Of a stretch of 64,000 nucleotides of DNA, positions 7,496 to 63,598 are shown in pieces. Both the position numbers and the translations under genes were made by a program. Source of the stretch: Chloroflexota bacterium (lineage in GTDB: Bacteria; Chloroflexota; Dehalococcoidia; Dehalococcoidales; UBA2162). The notes under the pieces were generated by a model. The model made no database searches, was not told the origin of the DNA, and saw only the letters and a program-made list of their open reading frames with translations. The first letter of the stretch is position 1. Each line of letters starts with the position of its first letter. The stretch is from positions 4,364-68,363 of the forward strand of contig JACPPV010000032.1 of assembly GCA_016190825.1 (NCBI GenBank), written 5' to 3'.

Positions 7496-7855
7496 TTACC
7501 AGCCCATCATGCCGCGGCCCGTGCCGCCACCCATCATCCCACCATTTCCCATCATGTCCTGCATACCGCCGTTGCCCATCATGCCGCCTGTTCCATGCAT
7601 GCTTTGATGGTCCATGTCCCCCATGACAGCATCGCATTCCTCATACATGCTTTCGTGGTCAACGTCTTCCATCACGATAGCACATTGAGCATGTTGCACA
7701 TCCGTAGGAGGGGCTCCCATAATGGGAACTGTGCCTCTGGGTGGGGTTGAGATTCCAGCAAAGGCAGTGCCCAACAGGGGAGTGCCGATGATGACTCCTG
7801 CGGCAAAAGCCAGTACGATGGCCGCTATCAATAGTATCTTCCGGGTTCCAAGCAT
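7496..7855 (-). CDS. Exported Met/His/Gly-rich protein (putative metal binder)
   Basis: Signal/TM N-terminus, repeated D(V/M)DH(E/Q)SM, GGMMG repeats; AAGGAGG SD. Confidence 0.8.
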   Translation of the reverse strand: MLGTRKILLIAAIVLAFAAGVIIGTPLLGTAFAGISTPPRGTVPIMGAPPTDVQHAQCAIVMEDVDHESMYEECDAVMGDMDHQSMHGTGGMMGNGGMQDMMGNGGMMGGGTGRGMMGW

Positions 7856-8000
7856 TTATGACCTCCTTAATTTTATTTTATTTTGAGCATTTCCTGCTCT
7901 CATGATTAATGCTATCAGGCTCTTATGTAGATGGTATCAGCAAAGTATGAAGAAATTATGTGGTTTTCCGGAGAGGGTGACAGAATCGCGTAGTGTTATT

Positions 8001-8019
8001 AGAACTCTTGTGCTACTAT
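8001..8019 (+). promoter_or_regulatory. LexA-like box overlapping an extended -10 upstream of the terminase pair
   Basis: AGAAC-TCTT-GTGCT (1 mismatch to AGAAC-N4-GTTCT); TG-c-TACTAT at 8011-8019. Confidence 0.55.
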
Positions 8020-8051
8020 TTGTCATTGATACGGCAGGCGGAGATAAAGCG

Positions 8052-8414
8052 ATGGAAGACGAAGAAAAGAAAAAAAGGGGCGCGCCGAAGGGCAACCAGA
8101 ACGCCCGGAAGCATGGTTTTTACTCCCGGGTCCTTGACGAGAAGGAGCGGGCTGACTTCGAGATGGCCACCTGCGTGGAGGGCATCGATGGCGAGATAGC
8201 CCTGCTGCGGGTAAAGATAAAATCGCTTGTGGAGCGGGACCCCGAGAATATGCGGCTCATCATGCAGGCAATAAATACGCTAGAAAGGCTGGTCAGAACG
8301 AAATACAGCATTGGCAAGGAAGACAAGAAAGGACTGAGGGGCGCCGTCGCCAACGTCCTCAAAGATATTGCTTTGCCGCTGGGTATCGGCGTGGGAACAG
8401 CGCTCAAGAAATAA
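8052..8414 (+). CDS. Putative terminase small subunit-like protein
   Basis: GAPKGNQNARKHGFYS motif seen in phage TerS N-termini; directly upstream of TerL. Confidence 0.7.
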   Translation: MEDEEKKKRGAPKGNQNARKHGFYSRVLDEKERADFEMATCVEGIDGEIALLRVKIKSLVERDPENMRLIMQAINTLERLVRTKYSIGKEDKKGLRGAVANVLKDIALPLGIGVGTALKK

Positions 8415-8508
8415 AGTAGCAAGGGTCAATCATCAAGTGTCAAGCCCCCTTTTCTACGGCGTTTGTTACTTGTGACTCGGCAATTGACACCTTTCTCCGG
8501 AGGCACTT

Positions 8509-9894
8509 ATTAATCCTCAGATCAGTCAGCTTCGTCCTTACCAGCAGGAGGTAGCCCTGGCGGTCCTGGACAGCGTCTTTGGCCGCAAGGGACTTACCTT
8601 TTCCGTGGAGATTGCCCGGCAGGGCGGCAAAAATGAGCTCTCCGCCCAGCTTGATCTCCTGCTGCTCACTCTCCACATGGCGCAGCCTAAGAACCTGGTG
8701 AAGTGCGCGCCTACCTTCAGGCCGCAGGCAGTTATTTCCATGGGCCGGCTAAAGGACCGCCTGAATGATGCCGGCTTTGACGGAATATGGACAGCCGAGC
8801 TTGGTTACATCATCCGGCTGGGCGCCGCCCGGGCGATTTTCCTCTCCGCCGATCGGTCAGCCAACGTCGTCGGACATACTGCCCATCTCCTGCTTGAGAT
8901 AGACGAGACGCAGGACGTGGACAAGGAAAAGTATGCCAAGGAATTCAAGCCGATGGGGGCAACTACCAACGTGACCACCGTGCTGTATGGGACAAGCTGG
9001 GATGATTCCACCCTTCTCGAAGAAATGAAGTACACGAACCTGGGGTTGCAGAAGCGGGATGGTATCCAGAGGCACTTCCGCTTCGACTGGCAGGAAGTTG
9101 CCAGATACAATCCCGATTACCTTGCCTACGTAGAAGGGGAAAAGGCGCGCCTGGGAGAAAATCATCCTCTGTTTCTGACGCAGTACCGCCTCATGCCCAT
9201 CCATGGCGGGGGCGGCTTTCTGTCCCCGCAACAACGGGCGCAGCTCCAGGGGGAACATTCCAGGAAGAGCCGGCCAGAGCCGGGGAAGGTTTATGTAGCC
9301 GGAATTGACCTTGCCGGGGAGGCGGAGGAAGGGGAAGGTGCCCGTTTGAGGGCGCTCAAGCCGCAGCAGGATTCCACCGTGGTTACCATCGGCGAAGTAG
9401 AATTTCCCGGCGGCGTTATGGCGCAAAAACAGCCGGCGGTCAAGATTGTGGAACACTACTGGTGGACGGGCAGGAAGCACACCGAGCTATACCCGCAGCT
9501 GGTGGATATCCTGAAAAACGTCTGGCGCTGCCGGCGGACAGCGGTGGATGCCACCGGAGTCGGGCAGCCGGTCGCGTCTTTTCTGAAGGAAGCGTTAGGC
9601 ACGATAGTGGTCCCCTTCACCTTTACACAGCCATCGAAATCTGAACTGGGGTTTAACCTGCTGGCGGCGGTCAACTCCGGCCGACTGAAGATGTATACCG
9701 GAGATGGATCGTTGGAGTACCGTGAGTTCTGGTCTGAAATGGAGAAAGCGCGGAGCCACTACCGTCCCAGCCAGACGATAGACTTCTACGTCGACCCGAC
9801 GCAGGGCCATGACGACTTCCTGATGAGCCTGGCGCTGCTGGCCGAGGCCGCCGGCAACTATTCGCCAAGGAGCGCGAGGGGAACAAGAGTTTGA
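8509..9894 (+). CDS. Phage-type terminase large subunit
   Basis: Q motif LRPYQ (8530), Walker A ARQGGKNE, Walker B LLEIDETQD, nuclease GIDLAG / DATGVG / HDDFLMSLAL; start extended upstream of the track's 8605. Confidence 0.88.
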   Translation: MNPQISQLRPYQQEVALAVLDSVFGRKGLTFSVEIARQGGKNELSAQLDLLLLTLHMAQPKNLVKCAPTFRPQAVISMGRLKDRLNDAGFDGIWTAELGYIIRLGAARAIFLSADRSANVVGHTAHLLLEIDETQDVDKEKYAKEFKPMGATTNVTTVLYGTSWDDSTLLEEMKYTNLGLQKRDGIQRHFRFDWQEVARYNPDYLAYVEGEKARLGENHPLFLTQYRLMPIHGGGGFLSPQQRAQLQGEHSRKSRPEPGKVYVAGIDLAGEAEEGEGARLRALKPQQDSTVVTIGEVEFPGGVMAQKQPAVKIVEHYWWTGRKHTELYPQLVDILKNVWRCRRTAVDATGVGQPVASFLKEALGTIVVPFTFTQPSKSELGFNLLAAVNSGRLKMYTGDGSLEYREFWSEMEKARSHYRPSQTIDFYVDPTQGHDDFLMSLALLAEAAGNYSPRSARGTRV

Positions 9895-9918
9895 CACCTC
9901 CCCCTTTCCAGCTATAAT
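9891..9918 (+). promoter_or_regulatory. sigma70 promoter of hom
   Basis: TTGACA-16-TATAAT. Confidence 0.8.
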
Positions 9919-62206: not shown

Positions 62207-62220
62207 AGAACACATGTTCT
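62207..62220. promoter_or_regulatory. LexA (SOS) box
   Basis: AGAAC-ACAT-GTTCT just downstream of TGgTAAAAT, upstream of dinB. Confidence 0.88.
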
Positions 62221-62252: not shown

Positions 62253-63476
62253 ATGTCTAACCGCACCATTATGCATATCGACCTAGACGCTTTTTTTGTC
62301 TCGGTCGAGCAGATAATGAACCCATCACTCCGGGGCAAACCGGTGGTGGTCGGTGGAAAGCCGGGCGGGAGGGGAGTGGTGGCCTGTGCGTCATACGAAG
62401 CAAGGGCTTTTGGCTTGCATGCCGGGATGCCCATATCCAGGGCTTACCGTCTCTGTCCCCAGGCAATCTTCATCGAGGGCGGTTATCCGAAATACCGCGA
62501 GGCTTCACGGAAGTTCATGCTCATCCTGGCTGATTTCTCGCCCTTTATTGAGCCAGTGGGTATTGATGAAGCCTACCTCGATGTCACTGGCTTTGAGTCC
62601 ATTCACGGCTCGATTCACCGGATGGCGGTGGCTATCAGGGAACGCACCAGAAAAGAGTTGGGGCTATGCGCCTCGGTGGGCATTGCCGGAGGCAAGGTGG
62701 TGGCGAAGGTCGCTTCTGAACTATCCAAACCAGATGGCTTGATTGAGGTGCCACCTGGCATGGATGCGGCTTTTCTATCACCCTTTTCCATTGACAGGCT
62801 GCCGGGAATCGGCGAGAGGACAGAGCAGGCGCTGAAGGGGCTGGGTATCAGGAGCATCGGTCAACTGGCCAGGTTGCCGCTAGAGGTTATGAAGAGGCAT
62901 TTCGGTGTCTATGGACAGGGCATACACCTTTGGGCGAATGGCATTGACGAAAGGAAGGTGGAGCTGCCCGGAGGGGTAAAGTCAATCAGCCGTGAAACCA
63001 CCTTTCCCGAAGATACAAGGAATAAAGTGGTCCTTAAAGCGATGCTGTGCTATCTTGCCGAAAGGGTGGCGGCTGAATTACGCGAACAGCAAAAGCGGGC
63101 GAAGTGCATCGCCATAAAGGTCCGCTATGCTGATTTCACCACCATAAGCCGCCAGCAGACCTCGCCGCAAAGCATGGATAGCGACCGGATGATATTCGGT
63201 AGCGGCGCCAGGCTGCTGGATAAGGCGCTACTGCTGGAAAGACAGCCGGTCCGCCTTGTCGGCATTGGCGCAAGCAACCTGGTGGAATTGGGCAGCCAGC
63301 TGAACATGTTCGACGCTTCGACGCAGAGGCAGGAGCAACTAAACCGGGCCGTTGACCGCATCCGCAAGAAATATGGCTTTACCGCCATCCAGACCGGCCG
63401 CACCCTGCCGCTAAAAGACCTTTTCCCCGAGACAGAGGCTGGCTATGCGCTTCATACAGCGAGTTTGTCACGGTAG
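62253..63476 (+). CDS. dinB: DNA polymerase IV
   Basis: HIDLDAFFVSVE, ASYEAR, GIDEAYLD, KPDG. Confidence 0.96.
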   Translation: MSNRTIMHIDLDAFFVSVEQIMNPSLRGKPVVVGGKPGGRGVVACASYEARAFGLHAGMPISRAYRLCPQAIFIEGGYPKYREASRKFMLILADFSPFIEPVGIDEAYLDVTGFESIHGSIHRMAVAIRERTRKELGLCASVGIAGGKVVAKVASELSKPDGLIEVPPGMDAAFLSPFSIDRLPGIGERTEQALKGLGIRSIGQLARLPLEVMKRHFGVYGQGIHLWANGIDERKVELPGGVKSISRETTFPEDTRNKVVLKAMLCYLAERVAAELREQQKRAKCIAIKVRYADFTTISRQQTSPQSMDSDRMIFGSGARLLDKALLLERQPVRLVGIGASNLVELGSQLNMFDASTQRQEQLNRAVDRIRKKYGFTAIQTGRTLPLKDLFPETEAGYALHTASLSR

Positions 63477-63598
63477 AACTGTTGTTCAGCTACCCTCTCC
63501 GCCGGAGTTTTTGGGGGGTTCAGCCTCTTCGAAACTACGCATTTATGATGGGAAGTAAAGAGATAGTCTGATGCGCACAGCTCTGGTTGAGTATCCTC

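Follow-up and report, generated by a model that had tools for sequence, protein, structure and literature searches.

A predicted LexA-type operator merged with an extended -10 element in two matching promoters of domesticated, GTA-like particle genes

Introduction

PBSX of Bacillus subtilis and the R/F pyocins are domesticated phage structures that are made after DNA damage. They comprise tails and lysis genes, and they are governed by dedicated regulators (Xre; PrtR/PrtN); control through a LexA box on their structural promoters is not known. The SOS box of Gram-positive bacteria, the Cheo-type palindrome GAAC-N4-GTTC, is reportedly also that of Dehalococcoides ethenogenes. Members of the Dehalococcoidales are abundant, hard to cultivate and key in subsurface carbon and halogen cycling; their genomes are small, and few routes of gene exchange are known for them. 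For Dehalococcoidia, we found no literature on LexA control of terminase genes or on any GTA-like system.

A close described case is phage GIL01 of Bacillus thuringiensis, for which host LexA, rather than a phage repressor, is described as acting at LexA boxes in the phage promoters P1 and P3, the latter being the late promoter of the virion genes (PMC6182141, PMC4551915). Activation of the late promoter is ascribed to gp6, a GIL01 protein homologous to LexA (PMC6182141), and the accounts of this phage place a small phage-encoded DNA-binding protein at the same promoter. Two gene transfer systems offer further parallels. For RcGTA of Rhodobacter capsulatus, lexA is described as required for production, acting through CckA (PMC6363796); for CcGTA of Caulobacter crescentus, the LexA-like protein RogA is described as repressing the GTA activator genes (PMC9632790).

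The locus described here resembles GIL01 in that host LexA is predicted to act at boxes in the promoters of virion genes. Unlike GIL01, which is described as a replicating temperate phage with tandem boxes and the corepressor gp7, the genes studied here are chromosomal, integrase-less and vertically inherited, and each promoter has one box, the right arm of which is merged with an extended -10; we recognised no gene here that resembles gp7 or gp6. As in RcGTA and CcGTA, phage head and packaging genes occur without integrase or replication genes, at several loci, with vertical inheritance, purifying selection and, as described for those two systems and predicted here, host control and ties to DNA-damage circuitry. 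In RcGTA and CcGTA the role of LexA is described as indirect, or as that of a paralogue acting on activators, whereas here a predicted LexA-type operator lies in the structural and packaging promoters themselves, and the particle, known from its genes alone, would be podovirus-like (SU10-type capsid and adaptor). PBSX and the pyocins differ in their dedicated regulators, with no LexA-type box known to control their structural promoters, and in their lysis genes, of which none was recognised here. Palindrome and spacing are those of the Cheo-type box, which the lexA promoter of this lineage also carries; however, one arm reads GTGC, and the terS site overlaps its -10, in contrast to the lexA operators, which are 3' of theirs.

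Results

The window, by which we mean the whole 64,000-nucleotide stretch that was analysed, comes from a 1.82-Mb genome (G000). The initial annotation had described a LexA-like box, one mismatch from perfect, that overlaps an extended -10 about 30 nt before terS, and each of these particulars holds. The sequence AGAAC-TCTT-GTGCT (AGAACTCTTGTGCT) lies at 8001-8014 on the forward strand, and departs from AGAAC-N4-GTTCT solely at position 12, where G replaces T, so that it agrees with the core at 9 of 10 positions. It shares bases with the extended -10 TGcTACTAT (8011-8019; TG at 8011-8012, TACTAT at 8014-8019), and 32 nt separate the end of the -10 from the terS ATG at 8052. With its flanks (TAGAAC..GTGCTA) this predicted LexA-type operator covers the spacer between -35 and -10 together with the first base of the -10, and its placement is identical in relatives. 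A site between -35 and -10 is in the position of a repressor. Upstream on the same strand are a weak -35-like hexamer, TAGTGT (7991-7996), 17 nt 5' of the -10 and replaced by TAGCnn or TTGACn in relatives, and the element GACAGAA (7979-7985; GACAAAA in relatives), 15 nt 5' of the box, which would be an UP-like or activator site. A putative ribosome-binding site, GGAGA, precedes terS at 8040-8044. A scanner built on the sigma-70 consensus missed this forward-strand promoter because its -35 matches at just two of six positions; with a TGn, a TAnnnT hexamer and a weak -35, the terS promoter can be classed as an extended -10 promoter. The runs listed as containing the part of the window from 7600 to 9900 are four DNA sequencing runs, all from one groundwater study, with no RNA run among them.

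As a bare motif, the terS box is at background level. The window has 24 sites of GAAC-N4-GTTC with at most one mismatch, where shuffles give 23.1 +/- 5.1, and at the same tolerance AGAACN4GTTCT occurs 31 times in the whole genome (three sites perfect), against about 54 by our own arithmetic assuming equal base use. It is conservation in relatives that makes the box significant despite this frequency. The initial annotation had proposed looking for the box upstream of orthologous terS genes, and there it is indeed conserved: 57 of 75 distinct informative terS promoters have it with at most one mismatch, and five more have it with two. Information content across these promoters is highest in the box and falls to zero downstream of the -10, the consensus being aaaa..GACAAAA.c...TAGc.a.a.TAGAACAtaTGTgCTAtTaT, with nothing conserved 3' of that. 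Among the 57 boxes, positions 1, 2, 4, 5, 10, 13 and 14 are invariant, and free variation is confined to position 12 (G 44, T 7, A 6, C 0). Some of these boxes are perfect (GTTCT), and two are inverted (AGTAC..GTTCT). The exact pattern AGAACNNNNGTGCTANNNT finds matches in 33 of 41 related genomes, mostly one to five apiece; its reversed control finds two in total.

The remaining particle genes of G000 are on another contig (C16, 25372-34425), behind AGAACATCTGTGCT. This operon encodes a Zn-finger/HTH protein of 116 aa, a portal of the SPP1 type, a scaffold-like protein, a capsid protein of the SU10/GP7 type, a Laminin_G_3 protein, an adaptor of the SU10 type and a protein of 666 aa. Its promoter reads GACAAAA-N5-TTGAC-N5-TAGAACAtATGTGCTAaTTT in all 21 informative genomes. 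Thus terS and the separate HTH-portal-capsid operon have in common a module of about 50 bp consisting of GACAAAA, -35, box and -10, with a constant distance between the GACAAAA-type element and the box. G occupies position 12 in every one of the 21 portal-operon boxes. In more distant lineages terS is preceded by GACAG..TTGAA..GTACTAATAT, without AGAAC although lexA is present, so that LexA-type control seems to have been either added to an older promoter or lost from it.

The lexA gene of G000 (contig C26, 21066-21761; TIGR00498, 149.7 bits against a cut-off of 110.95) has a perfect box, AGAACAGCTGTTCT, 13 nt upstream, and 28 of 29 relatives have the operator TAGAACAnnTGTTC(G/T) just 3' of the lexA -10. 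From the lexA operators of 28 relatives, with the window's own genome excluded, we derived a symmetrised 20-nt matrix and scanned G000 with it, restricting the scan to segments with at least one perfect half-site. The HTH-portal box came first (18.0 bits), an accessory HD/dNTPase gene third, a DNA-repair radical SAM gene fourth, lexA fifth, dinB sixth and the terS box 11th (12.3 bits); with its TCTT centre, the window's box is a weaker match than those of its relatives. The portal box can be ranked first by a matrix made from lexA operators alone because flank and centre preferences (T at -1, A6, T9) match those of the lexA operators. Position 12 is where the two groups part: G is found there in none of 37 lexA autoregulatory operators examined. 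In distant Dehalococcoidia, five of eight lexA operators read AGAAC-N4-GTAC, and across these eight genomes we saw no simple pattern of co-variation between the lexA-operator variant (GTTC/GTAC) and the terS-box variant. The radical SAM gene (box at contig C2, 190205-190218; TIGR03916, 338 bits, slightly below cut-off) has TTGACA-N17-TAT-AGTAC-N4-GTTCT or a perfect box in seven of nine relatives, and its single mismatch, a T, is forced, being the last T of the -10. Bona fide SOS-type sites are thus soft at position 12 and at its mirror, position 3.

The initial annotation had taken the perfect box before dinB as its reference. That box (AGAACACATGTTCT, 62207-62220, forward strand) lies 32 nt upstream of dinB, a Y-family DNA polymerase gene (62253-63476, forward strand; Pfam IMS, IMS_C, IMS_HHH), but is specific to G000, with none of 28 relatives having a box within 200 nt of dinB. 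The proper reference is instead the lexA autoregulatory operator, and the lack of conservation at dinB leaves the SOS regulon of the group poorly defined. Several relatives have dinB a few kb away from lexA. A further site with a perfect GAAC-N4-GTTC core, AGAACTGTTGTTCA (63475-63488), sits exactly on the dinB stop codon and may be a chance occurrence. The recA gene of G000 has no convincing box. A LuxR-type response regulator gene has a perfect box, AGAACTGGGGTTCT (contig C8, 14592-14605), that shares bases with its -35, TTGACA. The accessory gene ranked third encodes an HD/HD_assoc_2 dNTPase-like protein of 448 aa, with AGAACTTTTGTGCTATTAT (contig C35, 49249-49262, minus strand) 40 nt upstream. 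We asked whether it might be a conserved host gene with the GTGCT variant and rejected this, as the gene is specific to G000, with no close orthologue in 40 relatives. Its box is not accompanied by a GACAAAA element, and it is an accessory gene, possibly of the defence type.

The G at position 12 had been counted as a plain mismatch, which does not fit its retention in 44 of the 57 terS boxes and throughout the portal boxes. It is kept because the right arm doubles as a promoter element: TGTGCTAnnAT appears to be an ordinary, generic extended -10 of this lineage, with 63 copies of GTGCTAnnAT in G000. A TRTGn '-16 region' has been described for Gram-positive promoters, and TGTGCTAnnAT fits it. 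Among the 63 motifs, AGAAC stands 4 nt upstream only at terS and the HD gene; the portal operon, whose -10 is TATTTT, is a third case. The left arm, TAGAACA, agrees in full with a LexA half-site, and the right arm, TGTGCTA, matches the LexA right arm at six of seven positions. Since the generic extended -10 fully explains the right arm, the left half-site TAGAACA is the only operator-specific evidence at these promoters.

In one relative, G020, the module has a far wider distribution. This genome has 26 matches to the AGAACNNNNGTGCTANNNT pattern, and a search with the upstream half of the module alone found 31 modules, all 31 with a box, of the form (A/G)GAAC-N4-GT[G 23, T 4, A 4]CT. The full module reads GACAAAAC-TTGACA-N4/5-AGAAC-N4-GT(G/T/A)CT-A(t)TAT; AGAAC and GTGCTATTAT are fixed, and the 4-5 nt before AGAAC and the centre of the box vary. 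A consensus TATAAT accompanies T12 in three of four cases and G12 in one of 23, which fits a trade-off between operator and extended -10; by our own hypergeometric estimate (about 0.004), the copies being related to one another, this is only a hint. For 21 copies we named the downstream ORFs by eye from N-terminal translations. Some resemble recA, the radical SAM repair gene and the HTH-portal operon; others resemble gyrB, thrS, trpS, trmD, nadC, etfB and further genes. At the radical SAM gene, the module replaces the usual operator-promoter. The leaders are 180-470 nt long, and in 15 of the 21 copies a repeated sequence ends 100-300 nt 3' of the module; about 10 of these 15 have a conserved motif followed by a hairpin. 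An Rfam search of 14 leaders returned only a tRNA and one sub-threshold match. The G020 module may be a mobile promoter under regulation, or it may be a family of small RNAs, and the data fit a regulated promoter cassette that spread; we speculate that a normally repressed promoter is cheap to tolerate upstream of existing promoters.

The predicted packaging genes are alone in the window, flanked by genes for a DUF302 protein, a two-component system and homoserine dehydrogenase (hom). The terS-like gene (8052-8414, forward strand) encodes 120 aa with matches to terminase small subunits (PHROG 1889, E 3e-8; PHROG 509, 1e-5) and an NCBIfam TerS_not_xtmA match of 30.6 bits, under the cut-off. In many relatives (L006-L008, L012, L017, L018, L021, L023, L025, L030, L031) TerS has an N-terminal extension of 35-60 aa, M.LL.LAVE..RWDLAAHTIVLA...; the window's protein is the short form without this extension, and the promoter is directly before it. 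The terL-like gene (8509-9894, forward strand; Terminase_6C, E 1e-4; PHROG 5909) likely starts at an ATT at 8509, 5 nt behind GGAGG (8499-8503). The first canonical start (ATG, GTG or TTG) is the GTG at 8605, and the conserved TerL N-terminus (LRPYQQEVALAVLDSVFGRKGLTFSVEIARQGGKN, in the 8476-8605 region) lies upstream of it. Close relatives have ATA at the position of the ATT, others ATG, and still others an ATG some 20 codons farther 5', in out-of-frame overlap with terS. The ORF from 8605 to 9894 has weak matches to the nuclease domain of large terminases, and by eye we identified a Walker A-like ARQGGKN, a Walker B-like LLLEIDE and three acidic nuclease motifs. The Walker A of a terminase usually has S or T where this one (8617-8637) has N, and N is found there in all 28 aligned relative loci.

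The initial annotation had suggested domestication of the packaging genes, and this is strongly supported by signs of vertical inheritance (judged from identities, synteny and dN/dS), purifying selection, housekeeping flanks and a free cousin that has an integrase but no box. Of 40 relatives, 25 have TerL (63-80% identity) and 24 the portal (63-79%), at or above the values for LexA (48-69%) and DinB (47-70%) in the same genomes. For terL, the median dN/dS is 0.075 and the maximum 0.206 (126 of 210 pairs with finite dS). The gene hom lies 3' of terL in 15 of 29 loci, and the portal-capsid cluster on C16 is flanked by genes for enolase and a DNA methylase and by a glycogen phosphorylase gene. 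The best 80 matches among named species genomes are to uncultured Dehalococcoidales, Dehalococcoidia or Chloroflexota MAGs, save one labelled Zixiibacteriota. In the window's own family the terS-terL and HTH-portal operons are separated; in other families of the order (G026, G027, G031, G040) they are 3-4.5 kb apart on one contig, and the annotated contiguous locus of G027 has no integrase, repressor or cI-like gene. In the ORFs that were scanned we recognised no lysis gene. The gene set is thus GTA-like, without integrase, replication or repressor genes.

The free cousin is a 15.4-kb viral contig (L330) with a terminal repeat and a TerL 57% identical to that of the window. Genes for an integrase and an HNH endonuclease are present besides those for TerS, TerL, portal, capsid and tail proteins; terS-terL-portal form one block, and the contig has no HTH gene and no GAAC-N4-GTNC site (1.5 expected). 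Other distant relatives in IMG/VR have neither a box-bearing promoter nor an HTH gene, save L325, which has a perfect box about 200 nt upstream of terL.

Discussion

On balance we favour the view that a LexA-type operator, fused to an extended -10, is present in each of two matching promoters of domesticated, GTA-like particle genes. We propose that the 14-bp element is the operator within a composite promoter of about 50 bp (GACAAAA, weak -35, TAGAACA-N2-TGTGCTA and -10) that would drive terS-terL, with the near-identical module on the other contig driving the genes for the HTH protein, portal, scaffold, capsid, adaptor and nozzle-like protein. A LexA dimer seated between -35 and -10 would block RNA polymerase; after DNA damage, RecA-stimulated self-cleavage of LexA would release both operons together. 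LexA binding, repression, induction by damage and production of particles are steps that we infer from the sequence. The lexA gene itself was not found in four of 25 cluster-bearing relatives (G012, G014, G028, G037), where by our own arithmetic about 3.5 misses are expected from genome completeness.

We give next to no credence to the simplest alternative, a chance resemblance without function. One-mismatch sites are indeed at background in window and genome, but the box recurs in 57 of 75 terS promoters and all 21 portal promoters of families whose proteins are only 60-80% identical, and the pattern found in 33 of 41 genomes gave two control matches in total; this conservation refutes chance. 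A strong, possibly mobile general-purpose promoter, in which AGAAC is read by RNA polymerase or sigma with no repressor involved, would account for a right arm that is a generic extended -10, for the 31 copies in G020 before diverse housekeeping genes (15 of 21 sharing a downstream repeat), and for the distant lineages that keep the promoter without AGAAC. However, conservation is not normally expected of a spacer, and AGAAC is better conserved than any other part of the module, the -35 included; in G020 it is fixed while the neighbouring bases and the centre of the box vary. Moreover, AGAAC accompanies only three of about 64 GTGCTA-type promoters in G000, and perfect palindromes recur. We know of no sigma-70 element at -25 to -21, and we consider this explanation quite improbable.

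Harder to dismiss, though in our judgement still unlikely, is that the palindrome is the operator of another dimeric regulator, resembling a LexA box, so that control would not pass through the SOS response. Candidates would be a dedicated regulator of the particle genes, the 116-aa Zn-finger/HTH protein of the cluster or an unrecognised host factor. G12, fixed in the portal boxes and prevalent at terS, never occurs in the lexA operators examined; the HTH gene comes first in the structural operon of every chromosomal copy and is missing from the free cousin; and the 31 modules of G020 suit a general regulator better than SOS. There are precedents in GIL01 gp6 and Caulobacter RogA, as these are described (PMC6182141, PMC9632790). 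Nonetheless, position 12 can be G, T or A while the other arm positions are fixed, which suggests that the binder does not read the G, and perfect as well as inverted LexA boxes occur at the same place. The flank and centre preferences shared with lexA operators, and the first rank of the portal box under a lexA-only matrix, likewise argue for LexA. The HTH protein has only weak sigma region-4-like matches, which suit contact with the -35 or GACAAAA rather than with the palindrome; we regard it as a candidate activator at one of those elements and not as the palindrome's reader. A second S24-like protein encoded by G000 is not co-conserved with the cluster, and no other conserved regulator besides LexA is evident.

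That S24-like protein, the only one in G000 other than LexA, is a 230-aa XRE-HTH protein (contig C26, 6223-6909, minus strand). By eye it has no GDSM serine motif, and it would then be non-cleavable, as reported for Caulobacter RogA. We rejected it as a dedicated repressor: most cluster-bearing relatives have no full-length orthologue, and full-length relatives were found only in G033, G038 and G039, at no more than 35% identity.

We therefore return to LexA as the predicted occupant of the box, with a reservation about what the module controls. The initial annotation had placed the packaging genes under direct host SOS control rather than phage late control. The conserved box speaks for this claim; its other components, LexA binding and induction by damage, are predictions. 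Host rather than late control is plausible because the free cousin has terS-terL-portal without the box and without the HTH gene. Nor is the module confined to genes of phage origin. In G020 it precedes about 30 genes, most of them apparently housekeeping genes and some of them tRNA synthetase genes by eye; this would be an unusual SOS regulon and complicates a simple SOS reading.

A fuller picture is possible, and we offer it tentatively and with some doubt: uncultured Dehalococcoidales of groundwater and sediment may have a podovirus-derived, vertically inherited particle system, both operons of which are wired directly to the SOS repressor, such that damage would lead to DNA packaging and release. 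This would be a Chloroflexota GTA operated directly by LexA through a single half-site beside an extended -10, and the same trick would have spread the promoter to about 30 genes in one relative. If so, it would be the first case in which the structural and packaging promoters of a GTA-like system themselves have a LexA-type operator, and the particle set, whose conservation exceeds that of LexA and DinB, could be a vehicle by which this group transfers genes or templates DNA repair. A half-site beside a generic extended -10 also provides a simple, testable model of how host regulons capture foreign genes. For motif scans there is a caution, in that a conserved "mismatch" can be a promoter base.

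One complete genome (G033, contig C1, 362001-380000; locus L102) has a decayed copy of the structural operon. A truncated portal gene is fused into the last two thirds of the 666-aa gene, the capsid genes are gone, and both box-bearing promoters are kept.
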